A stretch of DNA of 64,000 nucleotides from Enhygromyxa salina (GCF_002994635.1 NZ_PVNL01000139.1:18055-82054); one strand, 5' to 3'; numbered from the stretch's first letter, positions 45,258 through 62,795 are shown. Notes: generated by a model from the sequence alone, not told the origin. Translations and numbers: made by a program.

Positions 45258-46228
45258 GGGGCCTTTGAAGTGGAGTGGGATGGGTCGCCCGGTACCAGGG
45301 TCTCGAGCAAGGTCTCGAGCAGCGTCACCGAGCGCAGCTTGGCCTCGAGCGTGCCCTGCATGCCGTCGAAGATCCGGTAGTGGGTGTCGTTGGCCGCGAA
45401 CGAGTCTGAGCGCAGCTCGGTCTCGACCACGACGATCGGCCCGCGCAGCTCGACGCTGCCTTGGCGATCGCGTCCGAGGTAGCGCATCGCCTCGGCCGGA
45501 CCGATGACCTCGTCGGCGACGGAGCGAACGACCACCTCGCTGCGGCTGTCGGAGAAGCCCTCGAGTTCGAGGTAGACCTGGGTGTCGGCAGCGCTGAGCA
45601 GCGGTCGGTAGTGCCCGGGGAACAGGCCGACGACGACGGTCCGCGCGTCGTCCTGCTCGAGCGAGACCAGCGCGTCGCCGAGCACGACCGGCTGGCCCCG
45701 ACGCACGCGCACGTCGGACACCACGCCGGACTCTGGGGCGACGATCGTGCGTCCGCGCAGCTTGGCCCGGGCCAGCTCGACGGCCGCGTCAAAGCTGGCG
45801 AGTCGCTGCCGCTTGCCCTCGCTGTCGCGCTGCGGGGCGCGAAGCAGCTCGAGCAGCTGGCGTGTGTAGGCCTGCTCGGCACGCTCGAGCTCGGCGCGCT
45901 CGCTCGCGTCATCGAGGCGAACCAGCACCGCCCCGGTCGCGACCCGCTGCCCCGACCGAACCTCGATCTGCTGGACGGTCCCGGACACGGCCGAGGTCAC
46001 CAGAACTCGACCCTCGCGGCGAACCGTGGCGATCCCTTGGGCGTACTCGCCGATCTCTGCAGTCGCCGCGAAGATCGTCGCGCTCACGAACACGGCGAGC
46101 AGCACGAGCTCGGCCAGGCGGGTCCACCCCGAGACCGCGCCGAGCGGTCGCCCCGGTCGATCACCGCAACCGTGCGCGTTTAATGCCGCAGGCCGGAAGA
46201 TCGAGCGCGCGGGCGCCGTCGCGTTCAT
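45254..46228 (-). CDS. HlyD-family secretion adaptor
   Basis: Transmembrane anchor LVLLAVFVSATIFA, coiled-coil and beta-barrel regions. ATGA coupling on both sides. Confidence 0.7.
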   Translation of the reverse strand: MNATAPARSIFRPAALNAHGCGDRPGRPLGAVSGWTRLAELVLLAVFVSATIFAATAEIGEYAQGIATVRREGRVLVTSAVSGTVQQIEVRSGQRVATGAVLVRLDDASERAELERAEQAYTRQLLELLRAPQRDSEGKRQRLASFDAAVELARAKLRGRTIVAPESGVVSDVRVRRGQPVVLGDALVSLEQDDARTVVVGLFPGHYRPLLSAADTQVYLELEGFSDSRSEVVVRSVADEVIGPAEAMRYLGRDRQGSVELRGPIVVVETELRSDSFAANDTHYRIFDGMQGTLEAKLRSVTLLETLLETLVPGDPSHSTSKAP

Positions 46229-47238
46229 GAGGCCGTCCGCGTCGCCCGAGCGTGAGCGCTGGCGTGGCCGACCAGCGCGTCGCACAGCGGCCCGCAGATG
46301 TCGACGCCTGCGCGCTGCTCGAACCCGATGAACATCGCCGAAGGGTTGAGCTCGAGGATCTTGTAGCGCCCGTGACGGTCGGCCTTGATGTCCATGCCCG
46401 TGTACGGAAGCCCGATGATCGCGGCCGCGCGCACACAGCTGGCCGCGACCTCGGGCGCGAGCTCGATCGCCTCAATCCGCTGTTCGTGCTGGCGAAAGTC
46501 GATCGCGTCCGTCACGATTCGCAGCGCGCAGACGACCTGGCCGTCGATCACATAGACGCGGACGTCGTCGCCAGGCAGCAGCTCCTGAAAGCAGACTGGG
46601 GCCGCGCCGAGCTTGGCGAGGCGCTCGGGGGACAGGTCGGCGGCTTCGACCTTGCGGGTCGCGGCCCCGCCAGCGACGGGCTTGAAGATCGCGTCGCGGC
46701 CCTCACAAAATCGCAGCACCGCCGCGGGGTCGTTGGTCCACAAGCTGTCGGGCGTCGGCAGCCCCGCCGCACGCAGCAGCGCGAGTTGGTACGGCTTGGT
46801 GATGTTGTTGCCGACCGTCGGGGGGTTGTAGAGCGGCACGCCGAGGTGCTCCCAGCGCAGCAGGATCGCCGACAGCAGCGTCGATCGCTCCCGAAACGCG
46901 AGCACCGTGCGACGCCAGTCCTCGCGCATGGCCTCGTCGGCCTCCACGCCGAACCCCGCCGGGCTCTGGTAGAGGCTGCGCACGTAGACGGCGGCCGGCC
47001 GCGCGATGCGGTGGCCCGCGATGTCGATCTGCTCGGGCCCGCCGCCCAGGCTGACCGCGAGCTGCTCGGGGAACTCGCGGGCGTCGAGGACCGTGGGCTC
47101 GTGACCGCGGGCGCGGACACCTTCGTAGACGGCGCGGGCGTGGGCATCCTCGAGGGCGCCGACGATGACGATGGGAGATACGGACACGGCTGGCTGCTCC
47201 GGGGAAGCGAGGGTTGAAGGTGCCCGCCGGGGCCGCAC
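46225..47238 (-). CDS. ATP-grasp macrocyclase (RimK-like; graspetide omega-ester ligase)
   Basis: ATP-grasp fold motifs (AIFKPVAGGAATRKV, ILELNPSAMF). Immediately downstream of the precursor. Confidence 0.75.
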   Translation of the reverse strand: MRPRRAPSTLASPEQPAVSVSPIVIVGALEDAHARAVYEGVRARGHEPTVLDAREFPEQLAVSLGGGPEQIDIAGHRIARPAAVYVRSLYQSPAGFGVEADEAMREDWRRTVLAFRERSTLLSAILLRWEHLGVPLYNPPTVGNNITKPYQLALLRAAGLPTPDSLWTNDPAAVLRFCEGRDAIFKPVAGGAATRKVEAADLSPERLAKLGAAPVCFQELLPGDDVRVYVIDGQVVCALRIVTDAIDFRQHEQRIEAIELAPEVAASCVRAAAIIGLPYTGMDIKADRHGRYKILELNPSAMFIGFEQRAGVDICGPLCDALVGHASAHARATRTAS

Positions 47239-47265: not shown

Positions 47266-47502
47266 CTAGCTGAGGGCGTCTTCTTCGCCGAGGGCGAGGG
47301 TGGTCGGGCCATCCTCCTCACCGATCGCGAGGGTGGTCATCACGTCTTCCTCGCCGAGCGCCTTGGTCGTCGGGTTGCAGTGGTCTTCCTCGCCGATCGC
47401 GAGGGTGGTCGCGATGGGGCCACCCTTGCCGCCGGTCACCTGACCGAGGTCCTCGATGTAGAGATCCTTCAGCTGCTTCTTGTCAGTCTTATTGTTGCTC
47501 AT
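47266..47502 (-). CDS. graspetide (plesiocin-like, group 2) precursor peptide with four TTxxxxEE core repeats
   Basis: MSNNKTDKKQLKDLYIEDLGQVTGGKGGPIATTLAIGEEDHCNPTTKALGEEDVMTTLAIGEEDGPTTLALGEEDALS. Leader with a LxIEDL-like motif. Four T(T/K)xxxGEED cores. AAGGA ribosome-binding site 7 nt upstream. Confidence 0.8.
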   Translation of the reverse strand: MSNNKTDKKQLKDLYIEDLGQVTGGKGGPIATTLAIGEEDHCNPTTKALGEEDVMTTLAIGEEDGPTTLALGEEDALS

Positions 47503-47953
47503 GTTGTCCTTGGATGTGTTGTGTCCAAACAAGGCGCCCGTCGAAACGCGGTTCACACCCGGTAAGATGCGTGAATGCGGGCTTCCGCGGGCGCCGATGC
47601 GGCCCAATCAATCACCGGTCCGGTGACCGTGCAAGCGCGCTCTCGGCCGCGTATGCCTCGTCTCCAACCGGATGTTGGGGACGAGCCGGGGTCCCGTCTC
47701 GGAGTTGTGGTCGATACATTCGACCCGGATTGATCATCGAATATCGATGATGGTGATCGTAAGAATGACCCACATGTCACTCAGGCTCCCAACCCAGGGT
47801 ATTGTGCGAATCCTCCGATGACCGAGCTGCGCGAGCTTCGAACAATGCACGAGTCGCGCCGAGCACGCGCTCGGCGAGACACTCAGCTCCGCGGGCGTGA
47901 CCAACGGCTGAGGCGTCGCGTCGAGTCGCTGAAGGCCACCCGGGCCGCCGCCG

Positions 47954-48607
47954 TCACGGCGAGTCGGGGCACGCCGCGTCGCCGCACACGAGGCTCAGCC
48001 CGTCGGGGCACAGCGTCGGCTCGCCCGCCGCACAGGTGTCGAACCGGCAGCCCTGCGTGCCCGGGTCGCCGTCGGGGCAGGTCAGCACGCAGCTCGAGCC
48101 ACTCTCGCAGTTAGCCGCACAGTTGTGGTCCGAGCACCGAAACGCGCACGCCGAGCCGGGGCCGCAGGTGCAGGTTCCGTTGGCGCAGGTCCCCGCGCAG
48201 TCGGGATTGTCGCCGGCGCAGGTGATGTGGCACGGGCTCGCGTCGCACAAGAACACGCAGCTGCTCCCGATGTCGCAGGTGCACTCGCCGTTGGCGCAGG
48301 TCCCCACGCAGTTGGAGCCGGGCTCGCAATCCACGTGGCACGGCGGCGCCGCACACTCGAACCCGCACGAGCTCCCGGGCCCGCAGGTGCACTCACCGTT
48401 GGCGCACTGGCCCACGCAGTCCGGGTTGTCGCCTTCGCAGTCGACGTGGCAGGGCGGCGCGGCGCATTCGAACTCGCAGGAGCTGCCTGCTCGACACACG
48501 CATGTGCCGTCGCTGCAGTCCACGGCGAGGGTACAGCCCGCGGCGACGCCGAGGGCGAAGCTGACGACGGCCGCCAGGGCCAGGTGCATGCGCTCAAACA
48601 TGATCAT
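47954..48607 (-). CDS. secreted Cys-rich protein with four roughly 38-aa repeats
   Basis: Signal MIMFERMHLALAAVVSFALGVAAGC. Repeats of C.CGPGSSC.FECAAPPCHVDCEGDNPDC.G.CANGEC. Confidence 0.55.
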   Translation of the reverse strand: MIMFERMHLALAAVVSFALGVAAGCTLAVDCSDGTCVCRAGSSCEFECAAPPCHVDCEGDNPDCVGQCANGECTCGPGSSCGFECAAPPCHVDCEPGSNCVGTCANGECTCDIGSSCVFLCDASPCHITCAGDNPDCAGTCANGTCTCGPGSACAFRCSDHNCAANCESGSSCVLTCPDGDPGTQGCRFDTCAAGEPTLCPDGLSLVCGDAACPDSP

Positions 48608-48844
48608 GGGTCCTCCAGTCTGGACTCGGGGACTGTCTTGTTCGGGGGGCGATCGAAGCCCCCACGCTCGACTCACCGGCCAACCTCGACTCACCGGCGA
48701 ACGAAGTCGACCTGCGCTCAATACACCTCGATGGGCGGCGCGAAGTTGGCCTGCTCCGTGCGGACGCGCACGGCCTCGCTGCGCTCAGCACCGACCACCG
48801 CCGGAAGCCCAAGCTAGCGCCGCCATTGGCTACGATGTCGATCG

Positions 48845-49996
48845 ATGAGCCGGCTGGTCTTCCACAGCATGTACCCGGACATGAAGCTGCCGGTGTCCGG
48901 AGAGCAGGTCCTGGGTCCGACCACGCTGCCCAAGCGGGCGCGCTCGTTCTGCAAGCCGATGACCGACGAGGTCCGCTCCGGCGTCTATCTTCACGCGCCG
49001 ATCGAGTTCGAATTTCGCCACAACCGCCAGACCATGTGGCTGCGGACCACGGTCGGCGATCTCCGTCACACGTCGATCCGCCACTTCGGCGTCACGGCCC
49101 GCGCCGACCTGCTGGTCAGCGATCTGTTCCCCGAGCGCTCGCGCGAGCTCCAGGCCAGGTTCCGCGCGGTCGCGATGGGCGCGGAGTTCCCCGACGATCT
49201 CACCGACGACCCCTGCTACCGCATCAATGACCGGCTGCTATCGGCGATCTCCGAGCCCGACGCTCCCGGCGGGATGGTCATCGTCTGGCTGGGCGGGACG
49301 CTCTACACCGAGGGCGACGACAAGCTGCTGATCAAGGGCGTGCCCAACCTCTACCAGCGCAACCGCTACGAGGTCCTCGACGCGATCATCGAGAGCTCGC
49401 GCTGGCACGGCTGGGTCGGCGCCGTGATCCGCAGCTACGACGAGAACACGTGGATCCCAGTCTCGGCCGCCGAGCCGTTCACCAAGGCGATGATCCTCGG
49501 CCCACGAACCGAGCTCGAGATCGTCCCCTTCGATCAGCTGCAGCGCGAGGTGCTCGTCGATCCGCTGCGCTGGAGCGACTTCGACGCGACCTACGCCCGG
49601 CCGCCGGGCAAGTACCTGCGGGACCTTCGACAGGGCGGAAGCTGGGACACCGAGTGGAAGAGCAAGCTCGACCTGCGCCCGCCCGCGCGGCTACCCTCGC
49701 CGCAGCTCGGCGCCCCCTCGACGCGGATCGCCGACGAGACCGAGCTGAGCTTCTTCGAGACGCGGCTGCGGCTGGTCGAGGATCTGCGCGCCGCGGACCG
49801 AGCGATCGAGATCCACCACAACGGCCGAGTCGCGCGCTTTGGTGGCGCCGACGCGTGCGAAGTCGTCGACGAGCTGTGCGCGTGGCCGCGGCTGTCGGCG
49901 GCCGAGCTGGCGACCCGGACCCCGTTCGAGATCGGCGAGCTGCGCGAGTTCTTGCAGCGCCTGGTCGAGGCCAGCGTCCTCAACCCTGTCGCGTGA
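48845..49996 (+). CDS. hypothetical protein
   Basis: 383-aa ORF with plausible composition. Convergent with the JmjC gene. Confidence 0.4.
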   Translation: MSRLVFHSMYPDMKLPVSGEQVLGPTTLPKRARSFCKPMTDEVRSGVYLHAPIEFEFRHNRQTMWLRTTVGDLRHTSIRHFGVTARADLLVSDLFPERSRELQARFRAVAMGAEFPDDLTDDPCYRINDRLLSAISEPDAPGGMVIVWLGGTLYTEGDDKLLIKGVPNLYQRNRYEVLDAIIESSRWHGWVGAVIRSYDENTWIPVSAAEPFTKAMILGPRTELEIVPFDQLQREVLVDPLRWSDFDATYARPPGKYLRDLRQGGSWDTEWKSKLDLRPPARLPSPQLGAPSTRIADETELSFFETRLRLVEDLRAADRAIEIHHNGRVARFGGADACEVVDELCAWPRLSAAELATRTPFEIGELREFLQRLVEASVLNPVA

Positions 49997-51353
49997 TCCG
50001 CAGCAGGCCATGCTCGACCATGACCCGCAGCAACGGCTCGACATCGGTCCAGGCGAAGCGCTCGTCTGCGTCGGTCCACGCGAGGGCGTCGGCGGCGACG
50101 AAGCGCTCGCGGGCGAGCAGCTCGCGGACCAGAGGTAGGGCCGCGACGGGCAGCGACAGCGACTTGGCCCCGGCGTGGAGCTCGATCGTGGGCGCGCGCT
50201 CGCGAGCCGGGCGCAGTCGGATCGGACAGCGACGATCAACCTCGAGCAGCTCGTCGCGCATGAGCTCGGGCACGGCGCCACGCGGTTGCGGCGGTTGGGG
50301 TGACGCGCAGGTCGAGGCCGACCACAGCTGCGTCAGCGTGTCCTCGTGGCGGTCCGGATCGGCGAGCAGCTCGGCGAGCGCCCCGAGTCGCCCGCGCATG
50401 TAGGCCCACAGCTCGTCGGTGGTCGTCACCCCTGCCCCCGCGGGCACCAACGGCGGCGGCCGACGCCACTCGAGCTCGCTACGCAGCTCACGCTCGAGCC
50501 ACACGTGCAGGAGATCGAGCACGCTGCGATCCTCGAGGAACAGGTTGAGCGCCAGCGAGTATCCGTGCGCCTCCGCGCGGTGCCAGGTCCCGGGCGGGAG
50601 GCACAGGAGGTCCCCAGGCTCGAGCGTGACCGACACGAACGCGCGCTCGTCGGGCGCCGCGGGTTGCTCCCACGCCTCCGGGGTCCGGCCGTGAGCGCGG
50701 CGCAACACCCGGACGCCGTCGCCGTCGATGTTGCAGTTGGCCCGCGGGTGCTCGACCGCCGGCGCTCGCCCGTACCGCCAGGTCTTGCTGCCCTCGAGCT
50801 GGATCGAGATCGCCGCGCGGGCGTCGAAGTGAGTCCCGAACCCGCAGCCATCGTGCGACAGGTAGCAGTTGACGCCGACGACCCCGGTGTAGCCGAGCTG
50901 CGCCCGGGTCACCCGCGCGAGCTCGGCCAGCTGGGCGTCGCGTCGCTCGACCCGGCTGACGCAGATCGTGGCGCCCGCGTCGAGGATCGGACCAATCGCC
51001 TCGTGGTTGACGCGAACCATCGGGATCGAGCGAGGCTCGGCGGCGCGATCGAAGCTCGCCTCGATCAGCAGCCCTTCGTCGGCGGCCGCGGCCTCGCGAT
51101 CGGCGAGCAGCGCGGCGCGCAAGTCCTCGAGCGAGAACAACCCCTCGACCTTGGCCGCCGCGCCGGGGATGTGTAGCGGCGCCCGGCCAAAGGCGCGGGC
51201 GAAGTCCTCGAGGCCGACGGGCTCGATCAACCGCGCGAACGCGTCCGGTCCGATCTCGCGGCGCATCGTCGAACGCGGCGCCGGGGTCGACGCGCCGCGC
51301 TCGCTGGCGAGCGCAGCGAACAGGGCCGAGAAGTCGATCGCTCGCGTGCGCAT
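49980..51353 (-). CDS. JmjC/cupin_4 family Fe(II)/2OG oxygenase-like protein
   Basis: Starts MRTRAIDFS (TGATG overlap with the upstream stop). Facial triad context GFGTHFDARAAISIQLEGSKTWRY ... PPGTWHRAEA. Confidence 0.7.
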   Translation of the reverse strand: MRTRAIDFSALFAALASERGASTPAPRSTMRREIGPDAFARLIEPVGLEDFARAFGRAPLHIPGAAAKVEGLFSLEDLRAALLADREAAAADEGLLIEASFDRAAEPRSIPMVRVNHEAIGPILDAGATICVSRVERRDAQLAELARVTRAQLGYTGVVGVNCYLSHDGCGFGTHFDARAAISIQLEGSKTWRYGRAPAVEHPRANCNIDGDGVRVLRRAHGRTPEAWEQPAAPDERAFVSVTLEPGDLLCLPPGTWHRAEAHGYSLALNLFLEDRSVLDLLHVWLERELRSELEWRRPPPLVPAGAGVTTTDELWAYMRGRLGALAELLADPDRHEDTLTQLWSASTCASPQPPQPRGAVPELMRDELLEVDRRCPIRLRPARERAPTIELHAGAKSLSLPVAALPLVRELLARERFVAADALAWTDADERFAWTDVEPLLRVMVEHGLLRITRQG

Positions 51354-52075
51354 CAGTCGACCGCCGCGAGCGGATCGGGGTTGGGGTGCTCGAGCCAGCC
51401 CCGCTCGGGCCGTGACCAGCCCCGCTCGGCGCCGCCGAGGGGCTTCGCCGCCAGCGCTGGCGTGGTGAACAGGCCCGTCCACGAGATGCGTTCGGCGCCG
51501 CTGCGGTTGGGCATCACGCAGTGCTCGACCCACGAGGGAAACAGCGCGAGGTCTCCGGCGGCCGGCTGGAGCTCAAACCACCTGGGCACGCTAAACGGCT
51601 CGAGGTCGAGCACGCACTCGCGCTCGACCCGGGTCAGGTAGGCGTCGGGGTTCTCGACCCGAAACCCGCCCGAACCCGGAGGCGCCTGAGCGTAGTAGGT
51701 CCCGCTGAAGGTCGAGCCCCCGTGGCCCCAGTGCTCGTGGGTGTGCGTCGCGCAGCCGGGCCCGCTGATGTTGACCCACAGCCCCACGTGCTCCCACGGG
51801 TGCGCCTGTGCTCGCCACCCGACTCGCGCCCACAGCGCTTCGATCGCGAGGTCGAACGCCGAGCGGAGGTCGGCGTAGTCCGGGGCGCGGTGCAGCTCGT
51901 CCTGGCTGTGCCAGGTGCTCTCGCCCTGGTAGTTGCGCCCTCGCGGATCGGCCCGACGTTCGGCCTCGGCCTGGGCCACGAGCGCCGCCGTGAGCGGCTC
52001 GTGCCCGTGCATGCGGACCAAGAAGCAGGGGATGCCGAAGGTGTCGAGTTCGATCAGCTCGGGGCGCAGGGACAT
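51353..52075 (-). CDS. putative 2OG-Fe(II) oxygenase-like protein (TIGR02466/PF13759-like)
   Basis: Starts MSLRPELIELD. Motif HTHEHWGHGGSTFSGTYYAQ resembles the HxH...SGVYY of that family. Confidence 0.4.
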   Translation of the reverse strand: MSLRPELIELDTFGIPCFLVRMHGHEPLTAALVAQAEAERRADPRGRNYQGESTWHSQDELHRAPDYADLRSAFDLAIEALWARVGWRAQAHPWEHVGLWVNISGPGCATHTHEHWGHGGSTFSGTYYAQAPPGSGGFRVENPDAYLTRVERECVLDLEPFSVPRWFELQPAAGDLALFPSWVEHCVMPNRSGAERISWTGLFTTPALAAKPLGGAERGWSRPERGWLEHPNPDPLAAVD

Positions 52076-52080
52076 GACGT

Positions 52081-53334
52081 TCACCGGCTTGCAGACGACG
52101 GGGACGCGACGACCTCGAGGATCTCGGCGGTCCACAGCACGCGCAAGATCGCACACAGCTCGCTGTCGCTGCGATCCAAGAAGCGCGCTCGCAGCTGCGC
52201 GAGGTCGAAGGCCGAGGCGCGCGCGCCGATCCAAGCGAGGACCTCGCGCGGGGCCGAGGACGAGGCGCGGATCGACAGCAGCACCGCGTCCTGCTCGTAG
52301 ACGACGAGCGTCACCCCGTCCCCGTCGTCGCGCCACTCGAAGCGAACGCCCGGGCGGAGCTCGAAGGCCGCGACGTCGGCGAGCAGCCCGGCGTCGCGGC
52401 CGAGCCCGCCGAGTAGGAGATCGATCGGCCGCAGCCCGGCGAGCTCGGCCTCGAGCGAGCGACGGTGGGCCGCGAGCTCGGCGAGCAGCGTCGCGCTGGT
52501 CAGTGACCCGGTCTCAATCGGTGCGCGCAGCTGCGGCTGCTCGAGCGACACGCGCTCGACGATCGCGCGCAGCAGCCCGCCCCAGGTCGGCGCCTCGAGC
52601 ATGATGTCGAGGTGGACCGAGTCGCTCAGCGGCGTCGTCGTGTGCCAGTAGCCCCGCGGCAAGAACAGGACCGATCCGGGCTCGAGCACCACGCTGTCGA
52701 GCGCCTCTGGCTCCCGCGCGTGGTCGAACAGCAAGACCTGCTCGAGGCTCGGGCTGGCGCCACCGAAGTGGTTGAAGGGCGGGTTCGGCACACAGGTGTT
52801 GGGCGCGTACTGCCAGCGCTTGCGGCCCGCGAGCTGCACGACCAGGCCCTCGCTGTTGTCCCAGTGCAGCGGCGGGGTGTGGGGCGAGCCCTCGCGGACC
52901 GCGAACAGGTTGCACGCGACCCGGGTCCGGGCGATCCCAAGCTCGTCGGCGAGGCGGCGGAGCGTCGTGGTCAGGCGCGGGAACCCGACGACCTTTTCGA
53001 GGTAGAGCTGCATCCCGGCCTGATACAGGGACAGCGCGCCGCTGACCTGGCGCTCGCTCAGCCGCCGCCCGCCGCCAACGCGCTCGGGGGTGAACGTGAC
53101 CTCGTCGCGGCCGAGCTGCAGGCGCGCGAGCTCGGCCTCGCCTGTGGTCAGCGCCGCGCTCGGGTCGACGAGCTGCTCGAGCTCGAACAGCGCGGCCCAG
53201 TCCGCGAGCGCGCCTTCGGCCACGAACGGACGGCCCGGCCAGTGCTCGCGCACGAAGCTCTCGCTGCGCGTGGGCGAGCCCAGCAGGGCCCCGAGGATCG
53301 ATGGCGGATCGAGCGCTTCGGCCATGGCGAGCAC
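52081..53334 (-). CDS. JmjC/cupin_4 family oxygenase-like protein
   Basis: PPLHWDNSEGLVVQLAGRKRWQY ... LPRGYWHTTT. Confidence 0.7.
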   Translation of the reverse strand: MLAMAEALDPPSILGALLGSPTRSESFVREHWPGRPFVAEGALADWAALFELEQLVDPSAALTTGEAELARLQLGRDEVTFTPERVGGGRRLSERQVSGALSLYQAGMQLYLEKVVGFPRLTTTLRRLADELGIARTRVACNLFAVREGSPHTPPLHWDNSEGLVVQLAGRKRWQYAPNTCVPNPPFNHFGGASPSLEQVLLFDHAREPEALDSVVLEPGSVLFLPRGYWHTTTPLSDSVHLDIMLEAPTWGGLLRAIVERVSLEQPQLRAPIETGSLTSATLLAELAAHRRSLEAELAGLRPIDLLLGGLGRDAGLLADVAAFELRPGVRFEWRDDGDGVTLVVYEQDAVLLSIRASSSAPREVLAWIGARASAFDLAQLRARFLDRSDSELCAILRVLWTAEILEVVASPSSASR

Positions 53335-53337
53335 CGG

Positions 53338-55650
53338 TCAGGGGGGCATCCGCCCGAGGCGGAGATCAGCGATTGTGAACGGTTCGCCGGCGCGACCGAG
53401 GCGCGCGCGGTAGTCGAGCACCCGATCCGGGACGTGGACTGGATGCGGGAGCGCGTCGAACATGCCCGTGACGACGACGCTGACCACGTGGACGCCGAGC
53501 TCCGGCGGCACCGGATAGGCGAACGCGCAGGCCTGCGTGCGCGGGCTGGCGGCGAGGATCCGCTGGACCACGACGTCGATGCAGCGGTCGATCGTGTCCC
53601 CGGGCGCGGCCGCGTCGGGCAGCGAGCTGGGGAGCTCGGCGAGCCTGCATGACCCCTCGATCCGCCCCCAGACCCGCGCGCGGTGCTCGTAGCTGTTGAG
53701 CACGCTCCCGCGGCTGCGGAGCGGGTCGCCGCGGTCGACGATCGCGTCGTAGCACAGGCCCTGGAACGCCTCGGTCAAGGCGCGACGCAGGGCGAGCACC
53801 GGCGAGAGGTGACAGCCGAGCCCGGTCGCCCAGTAGTTCACGTGGTCGTCGCGCGCACGCACGGCGGCCTCGACCACAGGGACACCGATGTCGTTGGTCA
53901 GGTCGCGCAGCTGGATCTCGTAGCCAGCCGCGTCGAGGGCCTCGATCACGGCGCGCGCGTGGACGTCGTCGACGCTGTCGAGCTCGACGGCGGCGAAGCC
54001 CAGCCCGGTCGCCGCCGCGGCGAAGCTCGCGTCGTGCTCGACGACCTCGAGCAACCCCTCGAGCACGGCCTCGTTCCAGGCGGTGCCGGCGGCGATGCCC
54101 GACGAACCACGCTCGGGCAGCACGAATTCGCTGCCGGCGAAGTCCGCACGCGCGAGCCCGTGGGCGCTGGCGGCGGGCAGCCAGAGCGGCCGGCGAGCAG
54201 CGAGGTCCGCGAGGTCGACGGCCTCGACCCAGTCGAGCATCGCGTCGGCCGGCCGGGGCACGCGGCCGCGCGGCTGGACCTGCGGCACCTGACCCGCGCA
54301 AAAAAAGTCGAGATCGAGGGTCGGAACGCCAAGCGCGTCAGCGGGCCCGCGGATGAGATCGAGGGGACCCACGCGACGGGCGAAGGTCTCCTCGAACCAC
54401 TCGTAGACCGCCGAGCACCACGCCTGGGCGGCGCTCAGGCCCTTGCCGAGCCCGCGCGCCTCATCGCCCGAGCACAGCCTGGGGTCACGGCGAAAGGGCA
54501 GCGTCGCGGAGACCTTCACGAACTCGATCTCCGCGAGCGCCGGGTGGCGGGCGATCAAGTCCGCCGGCCCGCGGGCGTGACGAATGTCGAGCTCGGCTCC
54601 GAGCTTGGCCAGCGCGCGCTCGCCGAGCGCTCGCGCGACGCTCGGCGGGACGCTGCGCAGGCCCGTGAGGACATCGACGACCTCTATCGAGCGCGAGCCT
54701 CCGTCGCGCTCGGGCTCGCTGGTGGTCGCCGTGGTCGAGCCTGCGATCGTCGAGATCGTGCGGACGAGCCCGCGACAGTGGGGGCAGCGGGTCATCGGTC
54801 CGATCGGTTGCCGACGCACGCGCCCGCCCCGGTCGACGACCGTCAGCGCCGTCGCGGGCTCCGGCGCGCGGTCGTCTGCGTAGGCGTCGAGGGCCGCCGC
54901 GATCGCGCCGACGAGGGTCAGGCGCTGGGCGAGCGCCCCCTCGACGGCCCCATCGACGGGCCAGACCGGGAGCGTGAGCTGGTCGAGCACGCCCACGGCC
55001 TCATGTGGTCGCTCGGGGAAGTAGTAGCGAGCCAGCCCGCACATCAGGCAGGGGGTGCGCGCGGGGATCATCAGCGGGCCGAGCACGACCTCGTCACCGG
55101 TACAGCTGACGAACAGCGCCTCGCGATCGGCAGCCAGCAGCGCGTCGGTCAGCGCGAGGGCGTCGCGCAGCGGACAACCGTCGAGGACCACCAGGCTCAG
55201 CTCCGGGCAATCTCCAGCGCGAACGGGCAACGCGAACTCCGTGGTCTCGCGCACGAGCCTGAGGTGGGCGCCGAGGTCCGCGAACAGCTCCGCGCCGAGC
55301 CGGCCCGAGCGGACCCCCGCGACCCGCAGCGATCCCAGCCCCGGCGAGCTCCTTGGCCGCTCGTTCGCGAGCCGGTCGACTAGCCGGTCGAGCACCACCT
55401 CGACGTCGCCCCGCTCGTAGCGGTGGGCCAGCGCCTCGACGGCGGCGTCTCGCGAGCCCGCGCTGTTCAGCGCGGCGAGCAGCTCGATGACGACCTCGGC
55501 GGGCATCCCCTCGATCTGGTGGAGGCGGCCGCCAGCGTGGAGCAGCACGCGACCAGCGTCGTCGGCCAGGACTTCGGCGAACTCGGGCGCGAGCGTCTGC
55601 AACGGCGCGCTCACCCGTCCCCCGATCGCGGCGCCGACAGGATCGGCCAC
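53338..55650 (-). CDS. fused cyclodehydratase: N-terminal E1/ThiF-like domain with CxxC pairs, plus C-terminal YcaO domain
   Basis: YcaO signature SSGIAAGTAWNEAVLEGLLEVVEHDA (compare SNGLAAGNTLEEAILQGLLELVERDA). N-terminal CLMCGLARYYF and CPHCRG zinc-ribbon-like pairs. 770 aa. Confidence 0.8.
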   Translation of the reverse strand: MADPVGAAIGGRVSAPLQTLAPEFAEVLADDAGRVLLHAGGRLHQIEGMPAEVVIELLAALNSAGSRDAAVEALAHRYERGDVEVVLDRLVDRLANERPRSSPGLGSLRVAGVRSGRLGAELFADLGAHLRLVRETTEFALPVRAGDCPELSLVVLDGCPLRDALALTDALLAADREALFVSCTGDEVVLGPLMIPARTPCLMCGLARYYFPERPHEAVGVLDQLTLPVWPVDGAVEGALAQRLTLVGAIAAALDAYADDRAPEPATALTVVDRGGRVRRQPIGPMTRCPHCRGLVRTISTIAGSTTATTSEPERDGGSRSIEVVDVLTGLRSVPPSVARALGERALAKLGAELDIRHARGPADLIARHPALAEIEFVKVSATLPFRRDPRLCSGDEARGLGKGLSAAQAWCSAVYEWFEETFARRVGPLDLIRGPADALGVPTLDLDFFCAGQVPQVQPRGRVPRPADAMLDWVEAVDLADLAARRPLWLPAASAHGLARADFAGSEFVLPERGSSGIAAGTAWNEAVLEGLLEVVEHDASFAAAATGLGFAAVELDSVDDVHARAVIEALDAAGYEIQLRDLTNDIGVPVVEAAVRARDDHVNYWATGLGCHLSPVLALRRALTEAFQGLCYDAIVDRGDPLRSRGSVLNSYEHRARVWGRIEGSCRLAELPSSLPDAAAPGDTIDRCIDVVVQRILAASPRTQACAFAYPVPPELGVHVVSVVVTGMFDALPHPVHVPDRVLDYRARLGRAGEPFTIADLRLGRMPP

Positions 55651-56759
55651 GGCGGCTCGGGCGTCGCCGCCGGATCCAGCCCACCGAGGCCGAACTCACC
55701 GACGATCGGCTCGCTGAGCGGATCGACGCCGGTGAGCCCGGCGAGCAGCTCGGTCTCAAACCCACCGCCGTAGGCACACGGGGCCAGGCCCAGCGCCGTC
55801 GCTACCAGATAGAAATACGCGTAGAGGCAGCCGACATCCTTGAGCTGGCTGACGTAGGCGATGTGATCGTACTTGTAGGCGACCCGCGCGATCCGGCTGG
55901 TCACGAGCAACACGATCAGCGGCAGCTTGGCGCCGCCCTTTGCGGCCGAGACCGAGGCACCGCGCTCGACGAGCTCGGCGATCAGCGAGGCCTCGGCCCG
56001 GAGGGGCTCGAGCGCGTGGCGCTGGGGGCAGTAGTGATAGACGTCGGGCGCGAGCCCCTCGACCGCGGCCGGTGACACGACCGGATAGATCTCGTGAGCG
56101 TAGAGCCCGCCCGCCGAGGGGTAGAGGCGGTGCTGGAGGACGCGACCGTCGTCGAGCTCGCGCGCGTCCCAGCTGCGCGCCGTCCAGTGAAAGAACTCGC
56201 CGAGCTGGTCCAGGCTGATGGTCGCGGTCGGCGGACTGAACGACCGGCGGCGCACCAGCACCTGCCAAAAATCGACGGCCGCGGGCTCGGGCTCCGGGAG
56301 CGCGATCGCCGTCGCGCTCATCGGTGGCTTGGCGTGCGGCTCGGAGCGCGTCAGGCCCTCGAAGCGATAGCGCGCGAGGGTCTGGGGCCGACACTCGCGA
56401 CTGTGTCGCTGCAGCGCGAGCTCGGGCGCGGCCCAGTAGCTCGACGGATCGAGGGCGCCGTCGACATCGGGCGGCCGTGACTCCTGCTCGGGTCGGACCA
56501 GGATCCCCGCCGCCTTCAGCGTCCGACAGGCCGCGATCACGTCGACCCCGAGCTCACGCGCGCCGCCGCTCGCCTCGACCTGTGCGGGGCTCGTGGGCAC
56601 GCGAAACCAATGCAGCACTTGCACGAGCGCGGCGTCGTCACAGACCAGCGCCTTGCCCGTGCGAAGGTTGCGGACGACCAGCTCACCCACCTCCCATGTC
56701 ACCGTGGTGAAGCGAGAGATCCGCAGCGGCTCGGTCGGATCAAGTTCCATCTCGCTCAT
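55611..56759 (-). CDS. SagB/McbC-type FMN-dependent dehydrogenase (nitroreductase fold)
   Basis: Starts MSEMELDPTEPL in an ATGA overlap with the upstream stop. YPSAGGLYAHEIYPVV matches the SagB-type dehydrogenase signature. Confidence 0.65.
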   Translation of the reverse strand: MSEMELDPTEPLRISRFTTVTWEVGELVVRNLRTGKALVCDDAALVQVLHWFRVPTSPAQVEASGGARELGVDVIAACRTLKAAGILVRPEQESRPPDVDGALDPSSYWAAPELALQRHSRECRPQTLARYRFEGLTRSEPHAKPPMSATAIALPEPEPAAVDFWQVLVRRRSFSPPTATISLDQLGEFFHWTARSWDARELDDGRVLQHRLYPSAGGLYAHEIYPVVSPAAVEGLAPDVYHYCPQRHALEPLRAEASLIAELVERGASVSAAKGGAKLPLIVLLVTSRIARVAYKYDHIAYVSQLKDVGCLYAYFYLVATALGLAPCAYGGGFETELLAGLTGVDPLSEPIVGEFGLGGLDPAATPEPPWPILSAPRSGDG

Positions 56760-57598
56760 TCGGGCAGCCCGAGCTCGGCGGCCTTGGGGTAGACCTCGCG
56801 CCGATAGCTGGGTTTGTTGGCGAACGCGAAGGGGACCGACATGAAGGTGCCGAGCGACAGGCGCAGTTGCTCTCGACGGCTCGGCGCTGGCACCACCGCG
56901 CGACTGATCGCCGAGTGGAACTGCCAGCCGGGGTACACGACCGTCCGATTGCAGCGTTGGCGCACGAGAGCCAGCCGCTCCCACGCGTCGGCAGCAACCT
57001 CGCCGCCGACCCGCTGCCGCCAGATCTCCGCCTGCAGCTGCTGAAGGTCGGGTCGCGGCAAGGCCTCGATCGCGGCCGGCAGCTGCGCGAGGAACTCCAA
57101 CCCGAGCAGCTCCTGCAACCACAGCAGCTCGACCGGATCCTTGTCGCTCATCCAGCAGGTGAGCCCGGTCGCTCGGTGGCGCCAAAACGCTGTGCCCTCG
57201 TCATCGTGGTCGGTGTCTGACAGGTAGGTGACCGCCGCCAACCACACGTCGTGATCCGCGTGCTGATCAATCAGATCTGAAGGACGCTCGCGCAGCCCGA
57301 GCGCCGACGCGTAGAAGTCCGCAGCGATCACGTCGAGGTCGATCGCCTTCGGGTAGCCCTCGGGCCACAGCTGGTCGAGGATCACCCGCGCGAGCAGCTC
57401 GACGAACGCCCGCCCCCCTATCGGAGACACGCGCGCGCGCAACCCGGGGTAGCCCGAGTCCGGGATCGCGTAGCCCTGCTCGAGCGCGGCCTCGCGGACC
57501 TGCTCGATATCGACGAAGGTGTCGTCGATGACGGCGATCACGGACCCCGCTAGGCGGAGGACTTCGACGCGACGCTGAGAATTAAGCTCGAGCCTCAT
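56756..57598 (-). CDS. hypothetical protein in RiPP-like operon (ATG at 57598 proposed; the ORF track begins at a TTG at 57610)
   Basis: Translationally coupled to the SagB-like gene. Its start codon lies in the 3' arm of a 12-bp hairpin. Confidence 0.4.
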   Translation of the reverse strand: MRLELNSQRRVEVLRLAGSVIAVIDDTFVDIEQVREAALEQGYAIPDSGYPGLRARVSPIGGRAFVELLARVILDQLWPEGYPKAIDLDVIAADFYASALGLRERPSDLIDQHADHDVWLAAVTYLSDTDHDDEGTAFWRHRATGLTCWMSDKDPVELLWLQELLGLEFLAQLPAAIEALPRPDLQQLQAEIWRQRVGGEVAADAWERLALVRQRCNRTVVYPGWQFHSAISRAVVPAPSRREQLRLSLGTFMSVPFAFANKPSYRREVYPKAAELGLPE

Positions 57599-57628
57599 CC
57601 GAATACCCAATGGATTGGATGAGGCTCG
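57589..57628 (-). promoter_or_regulatory. perfect 12-bp stem hairpin between the precursor and downstream genes, sequestering the downstream ATG
   Basis: cgagcctcatcc-(16 nt)-ggatgaggctcg. The ATG of the next gene is inside the stem. Confidence 0.35.
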
Positions 57629-57718
57629 TCAGCCTAGGCCGAGCACCAGCGCGAGAGCCCGTGGGAGCACCCATTCGGCTCATTTGGTTCCCCGGCGGCG
57701 CAGCCCTCGGCAAATTGC

Positions 57719-57874
57719 CTAGCGGTCGACGCCCACGGAGCCGTGGTTGCCGGAGCGCGACCAGCCGGCCTCGACCTTGCCGCCCTTGATCTTCTCCGTG
57801 GTCTCGCGATCGAGCTCGCGGATCTCGAGGTCTTTGATGTTCAGCTTGCGTTTGGGCTTGTTCTCGTCTGTCAT
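57719..57874 (-). CDS. candidate RiPP precursor peptide (51 aa): Lys-rich leader, GG motif, short Gly/Ser-rich core
   Basis: MTDENKPKRKLNIKDLEIRELDRETTEKIKGGKVEAGWSRSGNHGSVGVDR. AGAGGGAAC ribosome-binding site 7 nt upstream. AT-rich codon use against the GC-rich background. Located between the YcaO/SagB/JmjC genes. Confidence 0.6.
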   Translation of the reverse strand: MTDENKPKRKLNIKDLEIRELDRETTEKIKGGKVEAGWSRSGNHGSVGVDR

Positions 57875-57969
57875 TTTCGTTCCCTCTATTCTCGTGCTGC
57901 TATCTGGGCAACTTCGACCTCCGCAGGCTACTCGACCGCCAAACTTGCGCGCAAGGGTTTTCGCTCGCC

Positions 57970-59154
57970 TCAGGCCTCGCCTCGGACCCGCTGGAGAACC
58001 CCAGCCGCGGACAGGGCCGCGAACAAGTCCTCGAGCCAGGGCCAGAGCGAATCGGGGCAGTCCCAGAGCAGCGCACCGACCGGGGCCGGGCCTGACGACT
58101 GGGTCTGTGTCAGGCGCTCGAGCAAGCGATCGAACCACGGCAACTCCTCAATGGAGGCACCGATTGAATAGCTCATATGATCGCCGCAACTACGGATGTG
58201 GAAACGACCATCCGAGTCTACGCTCAATGTTACGTCTTCGTGAAGTGCCCACGACCCCGCCAACGTGTCGGGGAACGGCCCATATACCAGTTGGTCCACC
58301 GAGAGACAAGTGATCAGTTGTGTGATCGTTGGGCCGAGGGCGCGGAGATCGGCGAGCGAAGCGTGCGCAAGGTTCGCAAAGGACAGCTCTCGCAATCGCG
58401 GGTCGCGAACGATCTCCCACTCGATCAGCGACGAGAGCCGGGCGGCCAAGCTCGCCGGGCTGATCACGAACACGAGCGCGAGGCTGCGCGCCGAGCTGAC
58501 CTGCGTGGTGTGCCACAGGCCGCGCGGGAGCCACAGGGACTGGCCAGCGGCTACGGTCTCGACGGCGTCAAACGGACCGAGCGTGGGGCTCGGCTCGACC
58601 TGGGGATCCCGCGCGGTCCCGTCGGGTCGCCGCGCGAACCGCTGCCAGACAGGGTCGCGCCACTCGATCACGTTGGTGTTCGTCGGCGGGTGGATCTGCC
58701 AGCGCTTCTCGCCGTGCAGCTGCACGTTGAGACCGCAGTCGCGATCAAAGTGTAGATGTGCCCCGGAGCCTCGCGCACCCGCGAAGATCTCGACTCGCGA
58801 CGCCGAGGGCATGAAGTCCCCAACGGCCTCGCGGACGCGGTTGAGATAGCGCCCGAGCGCGGGAATGACTCGATGACATTCGTGGAAATACAGCGTCGCG
58901 CCAGCGCGGTGGGCGGCGAGGGCGGCCCGCGGCTCGAGCTTTTGTGCGCCCCGCATCCGCTGGCCGTCGGTGTGCCACACGGACACGCGCGCAGCGGGAG
59001 CTTGGCGCTCGAACAACGCACACACGGCCTCGACGTCGGGCAGCAGCACGACGAGCTCGGCGAACATGGGGTCGTCGTGGCAGTCGGCGCGGACGACCTG
59101 TGTCGGCCAGTCCGGGGCGGCGGGATCGACCCCGAACACGGCGCGAGTGCTCAT
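57970..59154 (-). CDS. JmjC/cupin_4 family oxygenase-like protein
   Basis: Starts MSTRAVFG (ATGA overlap). AHLHFDRDCGLNVQLHGEKRWQI ... LPRGLWHTTQ. Confidence 0.7.
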   Translation of the reverse strand: MSTRAVFGVDPAAPDWPTQVVRADCHDDPMFAELVVLLPDVEAVCALFERQAPAARVSVWHTDGQRMRGAQKLEPRAALAAHRAGATLYFHECHRVIPALGRYLNRVREAVGDFMPSASRVEIFAGARGSGAHLHFDRDCGLNVQLHGEKRWQIHPPTNTNVIEWRDPVWQRFARRPDGTARDPQVEPSPTLGPFDAVETVAAGQSLWLPRGLWHTTQVSSARSLALVFVISPASLAARLSSLIEWEIVRDPRLRELSFANLAHASLADLRALGPTITQLITCLSVDQLVYGPFPDTLAGSWALHEDVTLSVDSDGRFHIRSCGDHMSYSIGASIEELPWFDRLLERLTQTQSSGPAPVGALLWDCPDSLWPWLEDLFAALSAAGVLQRVRGEA

Positions 59155-60065
59155 CGCAGCGATCCGAGGTAGTCGCGCTCGAAGATCGCCAGGACCGCGG
59201 CGCGCTGCGGCGCCGACAGCTGACGCAGGTACGCCTCGTCCCCAAACGCATACTCGATGCTCCGCCACGTCGCCGCCAGCGCGGGCGCCCGCTGCTTGAG
59301 CGTGAGGCTGAGCGAGGCCTCGACGCTCTCGACCCAGTGCCAGATCGGGTTGGGCATGAACAGCGCCTGCCCGGGCTCGAGCTCGACCTCCCAGCAGTGC
59401 GAGCCCGCGAAGTTGGGATACTGCTCGAGGTCGACGCCCGGGAGATCGATGACCTGGGAGCTGCGCGTGCGCCAGTCAGTGACCGGGAAGGGGTAGAGAT
59501 CGGCGGTGATCGGCGCGAGCACGACCCGCTTGCGACCCTGGAGCTGGACCAGGAAGCCCGGGGTCTGGTCGTAGTGCAGCGTCGTGATCGCGCCGGCTTG
59601 CGACAGCCAAGCGCCCTGATCTTCGCAGCCGTCCATTGGCGCGGGCAGTGATCCGAGCTGAGCGCGGAGCTCGGCGTGGACCCGACCGCAATACCAATAG
59701 ACGACCTCACCGGGCGCGACGAGGGGCGGGCGCGCGCCCGGGTTGGTGATCCGGTCGATGATCTCGGGCAGCGGGAGCACGAACGAGTGGTAGCGACCCT
59801 CGGGCTGCGAGCGCTCCGACGGCGCGCGGTGGGGATCGAGGCGTGCGTCGTTGAGGTACAAGAAGGCGCCGCTCGGGCTGACCCAGCACTCTTCTCGCCA
59901 GTCACGCAGCCAGGCCTCGAGGTGGGTGAATTCCAGCGCCACGTTGTCGCGGCGCGAGACCTCTACCACGTAGGGCTCGCCGGCGACGGCGAACGCTTCG
60001 TGTCGCTCGCCAGCTTGCTCGACGTCGAGGATCGAGACCGCGCGGGTTTCACCAAACGCTCGCAT
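59151..60065 (-). CDS. JmjC/cupin_8-like hydroxylase
   Basis: Starts MRAFGETRAV. TLHYDQTPGFLVQLQGRKRVVL ... MPNPIWHWVES. Confidence 0.65.
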   Translation of the reverse strand: MRAFGETRAVSILDVEQAGERHEAFAVAGEPYVVEVSRRDNVALEFTHLEAWLRDWREECWVSPSGAFLYLNDARLDPHRAPSERSQPEGRYHSFVLPLPEIIDRITNPGARPPLVAPGEVVYWYCGRVHAELRAQLGSLPAPMDGCEDQGAWLSQAGAITTLHYDQTPGFLVQLQGRKRVVLAPITADLYPFPVTDWRTRSSQVIDLPGVDLEQYPNFAGSHCWEVELEPGQALFMPNPIWHWVESVEASLSLTLKQRAPALAATWRSIEYAFGDEAYLRQLSAPQRAAVLAIFERDYLGSLR

Positions 60066-60166
60066 GCCAGCGATTCGAATGATCGAGCATCGAGTCGGCA
60101 GAGTCAAACTCGACGACGACGATCGCCGCTTCTCCGCTACTCTCGGTCGACTCTCGCCGTCGGCAC

Positions 60167-61945: not shown

Positions 61946-62783
61946 CGAACTCGGGGTGGACGAGATCGAGCCAGTCGCGGTGGTCCTCCTCGACCCACAG
62001 CCTCAGGCCCTTCTTGTTGAGCTGGCGACCGGGGATCTCGCGACCGAAATTCGACAGGCAGTAGCGACACGCCTGCAGCGGCTTGGACGAGCGCAGGTAG
62101 GCCTCGAGCTGCTCGCGCAGCTCCGGGTTGGCGTGGAGCGCGATCGAGTCGGCCTCGCGATTGTCGAACTCGACGCCACATCGACGCAGGCGCGGCTGCA
62201 TCCACGGCGCGGGCGAGCACTTATAGTAGCGCCCCGCGTAGACCGTGTGGCACGACCACTCGTGGGTCTGGGGGCAATTGTCGTAGATCATCTGTACGCT
62301 CGCGTCGTCCTCGATCGCGTGATTGAGCACCGTGACCCGCATGTTCGGTGTGTCCTTGACGAACAGCTCGAAGCCGTGGGCCTCGGCCCGGGCCTCCACC
62401 TGCGCCCGGCTCATTCGATACTTGACGCCCGGATACACGCTCCACCACAGCCGATCGATCGAGGCCCAAAACGGCTCCGGGACGCGGTCGAGCAGCACGC
62501 CATTGGTCACTACCGTCACGCACTCCGCGATCGGCGAGGCCTTGGCGGTGGCGATGAACTCGAGCAGGTCGGGGTGCAGCAGTGGCTCGCCACCGAGCAG
62601 CTTGAGCTCGTGGGTCCGCATGACCCCGGCGAGCGCGTCGAGATCGCGGCAGAAGCTGGCGTGGTCCAGGAACGCCTTGGCCATCAGCGGCGAGGCGTGA
62701 TCGCAGCCGTAGCAGCTGAGGTTGCAGTGCTCGGTGAGGTTGAACTCGACCGAGGCGACGCGGAGGAGGGGCGCTGAAGTCAT
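61932..62783 (-). CDS. radical SAM enzyme
   Basis: CNLSCYGC (CxxxCxxC) 4Fe-4S binding motif plus additional Cys (CRYC). Confidence 0.75.
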   Translation of the reverse strand: MTSAPLLRVASVEFNLTEHCNLSCYGCDHASPLMAKAFLDHASFCRDLDALAGVMRTHELKLLGGEPLLHPDLLEFIATAKASPIAECVTVVTNGVLLDRVPEPFWASIDRLWWSVYPGVKYRMSRAQVEARAEAHGFELFVKDTPNMRVTVLNHAIEDDASVQMIYDNCPQTHEWSCHTVYAGRYYKCSPAPWMQPRLRRCGVEFDNREADSIALHANPELREQLEAYLRSSKPLQACRYCLSNFGREIPGRQLNKKGLRLWVEEDHRDWLDLVHPEFVTTE

Positions 62784-62795
62784 GACGGCTCGCGC

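Follow-up and report, generated by a model that had tools for sequence, protein, structure and literature searches.

Two leaders sharing KDLxIxxL in Enhygromyxa salina: probably independent members of the double-glycine class

Do two precursor peptides that carry the same leader motif also share the machinery that recognizes or processes them? The question is raised by a stretch of 64,000 nucleotides from Enhygromyxa salina (Nannocystaceae, Myxococcota; GCF_002994635.1, NZ_PVNL01000139.1:18055-82054), hereafter the window, with a G+C content of about 69%, in which a graspetide operon (unit A) and a cluster of YcaO, SagB and oxygenase genes (unit B) each encode a precursor of a peptide that is synthesized on the ribosome and modified post-translationally (RiPP). 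Precursor A, the translation of which begins MSNNKTDKKQLKDLYIEDLGQVTGGKGG, and precursor B, which begins MTDENKPKRKLNIKDLEIRELDRETTEKIKGGKVEAG, both show KDLxIxxL followed by GGK. A sequence-only reading had taken this as a hint of shared leader recognition or processing, by a single C39 exporter serving both or by recruitment of a graspetide-type leader into a pathway lacking an ATP-grasp enzyme. Both peptides and both motifs were found where they had been placed and read exactly as quoted. The observation is real but over-read: the two precursors are probably independent members of the double-glycine leader class, each in its own biosynthetic cluster, and the evidence supports neither a common exporter nor recruitment of a graspetide leader.

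In the six-frame translation of the window the string KDL.I..L has exactly two occurrences, one per precursor. Smith-Waterman alignment of the two leaders gave a score of 35 (p = 0.004-0.0065 in composition-preserving shuffles), and the KDLEIREL 8-mer of B scores 11.8 bits on a position-specific scoring matrix (PSSM) of plesiocin leaders, with p = 0.003 upon full shuffling. When hydrophobic and polar residues were permuted within their own positions, significance became marginal, with p = 0.036 for the PSSM score and p = 0.06 for identities. The common string also requires a gap of five residues, since counted from the double glycine KDLYIEDL occupies -14 to -7 in A and KDLEIREL -19 to -12 in B. 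Leader B is quasi-periodic with a period of five (Leu at -22, -17 and -12; Ile at -20 and -15) and a match to the motif of A shifted by five residues is therefore expected: L-12...I-10...L-7 of A fits one period upstream in B because Leu recurs every five residues. The identity thus appears to stem for the most part from the periodic spacing of hydrophobic residues and a composition rich in K, D and E, and KDLxIxxL is probably a class-level, largely coincidental likeness rather than a shared specific recognition element. Two further explanations were rejected. Recent transfer at the DNA level does not apply, since, compared by eye, the 24 nt that encode the two 8-mers agree at only 16 positions, nor does alternative cleavage of B five residues upstream, where no GG, GA or GS is found.

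Homologues of B are few. A word-indexed search of 5.8 billion clusters returned only the orthologue of E. salina DB30 (92% identical), and a full HMMER scan, which covered 1.84 billion representatives, yielded one further member, P0124 (MKNSTTNPAPKKKLEIEEIEIKELSTEELGKVSGGKVSQWERAGNGQTAGVDR; 49% identical, E = 3.5e-5), from a contig of 509 bp and 53% G+C without gene context. No further members came from scanning metagenomes with the B alignment, a second metagenome scan with the degenerate DNA pattern for W-x-R-x-G-N-x4-G-V-D-R-stop gave six chance matches, all leaderless, and PDB sequence searches with P0124 gave chance matches only. Precursor B hence defines a very rare precursor family, with three members among roughly 15 billion proteins. 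The three-sequence alignment keeps the leader pattern K-K-L-x-I-x-x-h-E-I-x-E-L...K-h-x-G-G-K-V, with the end (...IKGG followed by K in the window) showing GG in 3/3 members. KDL itself is not kept, as it reads EEI in P0124 (EEIEIKEL vs KDLEIREL). Hydrophobic residues stand at -22, -20, -17, -15, -12 and -4 of leader B, with Thr at -7. In the core the residues K-V...W-x-R-x-G-N-x3-[ST]-x-G-V-D-R are conserved.

It is in the register set by the double glycine that the similarity between the families is strong. Profile-profile alignment of 111 plesiocin leaders, the set from which the leader hidden Markov model (HMM) and profile were made, with the three B leaders paired QLKDLYIEDLGQVTGGK with EIRELDRETTEKIKGGK, ungapped from -17 to +1 and with the extra residues of B upstream (hhalign P = 1.6e-5). 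Not one of 300 column shuffles with GGK fixed reached the observed 22.1 (null 9.3 +/- 1.7, maximum 16.1). P0124 scores 16.8 bits on the plesiocin PSSM from -17 to -3, a value reached by 0 of 20000 shuffles, and over the eight motif columns (-14 to -7) it scores 11.5 bits when anchored on GG vs 6.9 in the register first proposed. Window B itself gives 1.7 bits from -17 to -3 (p = 0.028).

This similarity extends well beyond plesiocins. Double-glycine leaders have been described as a 'mix-and-match' element across maturases, such that leader similarity is only indirect evidence of modification class, and their generic consensus is ELSxEELxxVxGG (Haft 2010, PMC2887384). Four generic consensus 13-mers (Table 3 of the same work) score 11-16 bits (11.4-15.9) on the plesiocin PSSM, all above the 8.3 bits of window B in their register, and of the 13 residues, members of the B family have 4-9 in common with the generic motifs and 4-7 with the plesiocin consensus. 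The last 13 leader residues of P0124, ELSTEELGKVSGG, form a textbook double-glycine motif, comparable to ELSDEELEAVAGG (Nif11), ELSDEELESITGG (lichenicidin) and ELSEKELAQIIGG (class II bacteriocins) of that table; the E. salina 13-mers, ELDRETTEKIKGG in the window and ELDRETMEKLKGG, read as degenerate forms of the canonical motif. The C39 leader consensus is L-12 x3 E-8 L-7 (PMC6363468). All canonical C39 positions are present in P0124 (I-15, L-12, E-8, L-7, V-4); in window B I-15, L-12 and I-4 fit while T-8 and T-7 deviate, and the DB30 orthologue has M-7.

Library searches gave the same picture. The B family matches models of several chemistries, all below threshold: PF14406, targets of Bacteroidota ATP-grasp enzymes (0.0038), TIGR04149, targets of radical S-adenosylmethionine (SAM) enzymes (3e-4), PF10439, class II bacteriocins (0.022), TIGR04497 (0.017), TIGR03949 (0.02) and TIGR01847 (0.12). 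The best matches, PF14406 (Bacteroid_pep) and TIGR04149 (GG_sam_targ_CFB), reach 17.9 and 20.6 bits, each against a cut-off of 25; they share with B a Lys-rich N-terminus, a segment of the K-L-x-I-x-x-L type and ...I/V-x-GG, but their taxa and partner enzymes are unlike those of B. No match of the B family to a curated GG-leader model exceeds its cut-off, and precursor A has none at E <= 10 (TIGR01847, PF10439, others). The likeness of leaders A and B hence appears to be class-level, tied to GG-leader families of differing chemistries. Like the C39 leaders of class II bacteriocins, class II lanthipeptides and the NHLP/Nif11 group, they have the GG end; the hydrophobic positions -4, -7, -12 and -15 and the acidic position -8 are all filled in A and in part in window B, and a peptidase-containing ATP-binding cassette transporter (PCAT) with HlyD is encoded nearby (for B, in DB30). 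They differ in being short (25 and 32 aa) and below the curated cut-off of every library model, in the Thr-Thr at -8/-7 of window B, and in their maturases, an ATP-grasp enzyme and a YcaO/SagB/JmjC set. The shared processing logic that had been proposed stands in this generic sense, with both leaders in the double-glycine C39/PCAT class, and is not supported as far as a specific shared element is concerned. The shared motif needs no new mechanism and illustrates the known reuse of double-glycine leaders across RiPP classes, where leader similarity predicts neither modification chemistry nor a shared exporter.

Precursor A can be assigned by its sequence to the plesiocin-type (group 2) graspetide precursors. 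It has 228 homologues, Plesiocystis pacifica PPSIR1_14310 among them, matches the PsnA2(14-38) peptide of PDB 7DRM (LFIEDLGKVTGGKGGPYTTLAIGEE, E = 3e-7), and resembles P. pacifica PsnA2 in LYIEDL (LFIEDL in PsnA2), the GGKGGP linker and the TTLAIGEE core repeats, with the repeated TTxxxxEE motifs of graspetides present four times. LFIEDL is needed for PsnB binding, with Phe15 as the chief determinant (bioRxiv 10.1101/2021.03.09.434688); the corresponding residue is Tyr in A and Phe or Tyr in 114/114 family members, the set used for leader frequencies. Conservation of these leaders is extreme: -15 is Leu in 95%, -14 Lys in 73%, -13 Asp or Glu in 96%, -12 Leu in 100%, -11 Phe or Tyr in 100%, -10 Ile in 100%, -9 Glu in 96%, -8 Asp or Glu in 99%, -7 Leu in 99%, -6 Gly in 99% and -4 Val in 94%. 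The end, ...VTGG followed by K in A, is GG in 96% and GA in five members, thus GG or GA in 114/114, with Lys at +1 in 64%. With all C39 determinants (L-15, L-12, D-8, L-7, V-4) and a terminal GG, leader A reads as a canonical double-glycine leader that bears the ATP-grasp motif on top.

Segment LKDLYIEDLGQVTGG of leader A would then have a double role, in ATP-grasp docking and in C39 recognition. LYIEDL, via its aromatic Tyr, may dock into the PsnB-like ATP-grasp enzyme at its conserved hydrophobic pocket, where the leader-pocket residues of PsnB (list from bioRxiv 10.1101/2021.03.09.434688, mapped by hand on the alignment with 7DRM_A) are kept or conservatively swapped: Y171F, R181, R192, I193L, L196, V201 and F203. 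L-12, D-8, L-7 and V-4 with GG would be read by PCAT1, product of the same operon, and the C39 domain would remove the leader after GG, as in the class at large. In plesiocin-type precursors LFIEDL and the C39 positions (L-12, D/E-8, L-7, V-4) thus overlap on one short segment.

For B, we infer that the leader is likewise removed after GG; cleavage by a PCAT would release KVEAGWSRSGNHGSVGVDR. The exporter in question may be found in E. salina DB30, with which the window is collinear from 48750 to 64000 at 94-96% nucleotide identity and which was used as proxy for the sequence past position 64000. Upstream of the radical-SAM genes, the DB30 cluster has a glycosyltransferase gene, an HlyD gene and the gene of PCAT2, a complete C39-ABC transporter of 732 aa that is 35% identical to PCAT1; an aldehyde dehydrogenase gene bounds this end. 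PCAT2 lies 9.6 kb from B in that locus (L002). Since B is the only ORF (open reading frame) with the GG pattern in the 21-kb DB30 locus, PCAT2 would most simply be the exporter of B, and by synteny it is expected just beyond the end of the window in the genome studied here.

The two units can also be separated. Collinearity breaks at about 48750 (position 19453 of the DB30 locus L001), and within the ~700 bp past the break DB30 shows no match to the graspetide operon or to the Cys-rich gene next to it. Because unit A is not found at the DB30 junction, units A and B appear to be separable modules that happen to adjoin in the window strain. The order precursor, ATP-grasp, HlyD, PCAT and a protein of about 310 aa is identical in Nannocystis pusilla, and PCAT1, 2 kb from precursor A, therefore belongs to unit A. 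In a scan of contigs with the fragment of the B12-binding radical-SAM gene, DB30 was the sole close locus, the other 79 being distant relatives without GG-type precursors.

That PCAT1 is leader peptidase and exporter for B as well, with the motif reflecting selection for one C39 domain, is accordingly unlikely. Speaking for it are the intact C39 domain of PCAT1, which lies 12.5 kb from precursor B, the GG end and the hydrophobic residues at -4, -12 and -15 in both leaders, the high substrate tolerance that C39 domains can show (LahT150, PMC6363468), and the lack of a visible PCAT2 within the window. Against this stand the PCAT2 and HlyD of the syntenic DB30 cluster, where the graspetide operon is not found in the ~700 bp past the homologous junction, the retention of PCAT1 as part of plesiocin-type operons elsewhere, and a convergent gene between the two units. 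The 8-mer, moreover, stands at differing distances from GG in the two leaders and therefore cannot fill the same C39 sub-sites.

A variant is cross-talk confined to the window strain: with Thr-Thr decay in B and an upstream KDLEIREL that mimics the plesiocin LFIEDL/PCAT motif, an operon inserted 10 kb away could have brought in a PCAT1 that processes B in a shifted register, or an ATP-grasp enzyme that binds leader B. We consider this rather less probable again.

Less probable still is descent of leader B from a graspetide leader, plesiocin-type or other, with continuing recognition by an ATP-grasp enzyme or a common leader-binding protein. The full-shuffle score of the 8-mer and the weak matches to the ATP-grasp target families PF14406 and TIGR04497 speak for it, but the families of radical-SAM targets and class II bacteriocins match B equally weakly, and p is 0.036 in the pattern-preserving shuffle. 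The plesiocin-leader HMM gives B -1.9 bits (best domain 1.6), which is noise among the 983 ORFs of the window, and A 58.6 bits. The invariant aromatic residue is Glu in the register first proposed (LEIREL) and Asp when anchored on GG (LDRETT), KDL is lost in P0124, and the core of B, KVEAGWSRSGNHGSVGVDR, contains no TTxxxxEE motif. In comparison with PsnA2 and PsnB, B thus shares only L..I..L and GGK, with neither aromatic, core motif nor enzyme partner; B as a plesiocin-type leader was rejected on the HMM score and the missing aromatic.

Pure coincidence, without functional relation of any kind between the leaders, is just as improbable: the 8-mer is marginal under the structured null and was noticed after the fact, but the GG-anchored similarity of the families lies far beyond shuffles, the two ORFs are the only ones in 64 kb with the canonical double-glycine pattern h(-15)xxh(-12)xxxx[h/T](-7)xxh(-4)xGG, and both clusters are associated with PCAT genes.

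Several points weigh against independent double-glycine membership, which nevertheless is the reading we prefer. In window B the eight motif columns score 11.8 bits in the upstream register vs 2.5 anchored on GG, i.e. in the window strain it is the upstream copy that resembles the plesiocin motif more closely. Its canonical -8/-7 positions are Thr-Thr; at -7, charged residues were not tolerated by LahT150, in a test that did not include polar Thr (PMC6363468). The B family has three members of which one is divergent, and the conservation argument therefore depends on that single sequence from a context-free contig of 509 bp. PCAT2 was seen in DB30 and not in the window genome, as the window stops within the B12 radical-SAM gene, about 3.5 kb before the place expected for PCAT2.

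The features of both units are collected in Table 1. Unit A runs on the minus strand from 47502 down to 42169 in the order precursor A, ATP-grasp, HlyD, PCAT1 and second HlyD-like gene. Unit B, also on the minus strand, runs from 64000 or beyond to 49980 with the DUF6817 gene on the plus strand inside it, in the order partial B12 radical-SAM, 283-aa Cys-rich gene, DUF6817, two JmjC, precursor B, DUF6445, SagB, fused leader-binding/YcaO, JmjC, 2-oxoglutarate (2OG) oxygenase and JmjC.

Table 1. Coordinates of the two precursors, their leader elements and the surrounding genes (positions in the window)
Feature	Position	Strand	Remarks
Precursor A	47266..47502	-	78 aa; plesiocin-family (group 2) graspetide precursor by sequence; four TTxxxGEED core repeats
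Leader of A, M1-G25	47428..47502	-	double glycine at its end; family consensus MSKKTKKKQLKDLFIEDLGQVTGGK
KDLYIEDL of A	47446..47469	-	includes LYIEDL (PsnB-binding motif) and C39 determinants L-12, D-8, L-7
GGK of A (G24, G25, K26)	47425..47433	-	K at +1 in 73/114 family members
Precursor B	57719..57874	-	51 aa; belongs to an orphan family of three known sequences; core KVEAGWSRSGNHGSVGVDR
Leader of B, M1-G32	57779..57874	-	double glycine at its end; sub-threshold matches to GG-leader families
KDLEIREL of B	57812..57835	-	5 residues farther upstream than motif in A
GGK of B (G31, G32, K33)	57776..57784	-	GGKV invariant in three family members
ATP-grasp macrocyclase, PsnB orthologue	46225..47238	-	PDB 7DRM_A E = 7e-134; TIGR04187 and RimK matches
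HlyD-type membrane-fusion protein	45254..46285	-	Pfam HlyD_D23, HlyD_3; same position in N. pusilla locus L085
PCAT1, C39 peptidase-ABC exporter	43077..45257	-	Pfam Peptidase_C39, ABC_membrane, ABC_tran; TIGR03796 1e-180
Second HlyD_3-like protein, downstream of PCAT1	42169..43080	-	314-aa gene at equivalent place in L085
Convergent gene, 383 aa, unknown function	48845..49996	+	separates the two transcription units; synteny break just beside
Three oxygenase genes: JmjC_2, 2OG-FeII_Oxy_5, JmjC_2	49980..53334	-	Pfam
Fused cyclodehydratase: N-terminal TOMM leader-binding/E1-like region and YcaO	53338..55650	-	Pfam YcaO 8.7e-45; TIGR03604
SagB-type dehydrogenase	55611..56786	-	TIGR03605 1.9e-38; start set by 391-aa DB30 gene call, ORF reaches 57185
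DUF6445 protein, directly downstream of precursor B	56756..57610	-	
Two more JmjC/Cupin_8 genes, upstream of precursor B	57970..60362	-	
DUF6817-containing protein, 592 aa	60167..61945	+	
283-aa Cys-rich gene and 3' part of B12-binding radical-SAM gene	61932..64000	-	runs off the window

In unit A a C39-ABC gene is co-located with the precursor, and the Q/C/H/D catalytic motifs are readable in the PCAT1 sequence. The presence of a PCAT gene inside the operon in Nannocystaceae, with both recognition motifs on one short leader segment, suggests a candidate for the leader peptidase of this graspetide group, which had long gone unidentified. The copies in N. pusilla and E. salina lie in complete operons, unlike P. 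pacifica SIR-1 PPSIR1_14310 (L083 8001-8216, ABCS01000114.1), a stand-alone gene with no ATP-grasp or PCAT gene within 8 kb. Six plesiocin-like peptides with TTLAIGEE core repeats (P0062, P0088, P0106, P0110, P0118 and P0119) have no LFIEDL...GG leader; a tail ..PFG[GAS]F is conserved in several of them and suggests a different recognition or follower arrangement.

Between the units lies the Cys-rich repeat ORF mentioned above (47954-48721, minus strand, 255 aa, TTG start), with a lipoprotein-like signal (..LGVAAGC) followed by repeats of about 31 aa (CxxGSSCxFxCxxxPCHVDC). It has no Pfam or NCBIfam match and lies beyond the synteny break, in the part that the DB30 locus lacks. Relative to DB30, this gene and the graspetide operon represent an insertion, a deletion or a rearrangement.

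Unit B has one hallmark of thiazole/oxazole-modified microcin (TOMM) or linear azol(in)e-containing peptide (LAP) clusters: a YcaO cyclodehydratase with leader-binding domain and a SagB dehydrogenase adjoin precursor B. The leader-binding domain TIGR03882 scores 42.4 bits in the YcaO fusion, against a cut-off of 36.9. The fusion protein, of 770 aa, is collinear with the cyanobactin heterocyclases LynD and TruD (775-781 aa) and matches LynD, TruD and MusD in the PDB, but outside the YcaO domain its similarity to LynD is not significant, and no close homologues outside E. salina were found at E <= 1e-20. The PatE leader (PDB 4V1T chain C) contains LAELSEEALGDAG, which resembles the GG-proximal KELSTEELGKVSGG of P0124. 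The systems differ in that the YcaO cluster has no cyanobactin proteases and is accompanied by many oxygenase and radical-SAM genes, and in that the core of B, with three Ser in 19 residues, has no Cys and a single conserved Ser/Thr position ([ST]-x-G-V-D-R), shared with P0124. The PatE segment is reportedly bound by the N-terminal domain of LynD. In leader B, the element that the N-terminal domain of the YcaO fusion would bind could be the GG-proximal motif or, alternatively, the LxIxxLxIxxL segment upstream, which would be family-specific.

The combination of YcaO, SagB, four JmjC/cupin genes, 2OG-FeII_Oxy_5, DUF6445, DUF6817, radical-SAM genes, glycosyltransferase and PCAT/HlyD is unusual, and we found no published paper on this cluster. 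Together with its rare precursor family, this cluster is a better discovery target than the shared motif.

In this DNA of 70% G+C, longest-ORF calls in unit B run too far and into adjacent genes, with overlaps of hundreds of bases (55611-57185, 51353-52336, 57970-60362 and 53338-55650); the SagB ORF has 524 aa vs 391 aa called in DB30, and records differ on the length of YcaO (617, 770 or 846 aa). The DB30 counterpart of the 283-aa Cys-rich gene has a weak Radical_SAM match. The N-terminus of the DUF6817 protein (60167-61066, plus strand) shows a faint, non-significant likeness (E = 10) to the E1-like/TIGR03882 region of YcaO (54271-55650, minus strand), in the segments ...LVFITVGAQALSFGP...CLAC and ...LFVSCTGDEVVLGP...CLMC; a BLASTP comparison of the two N-termini was not significant either (E = 7). 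The DUF6817 protein could be a candidate second leader-docking protein.

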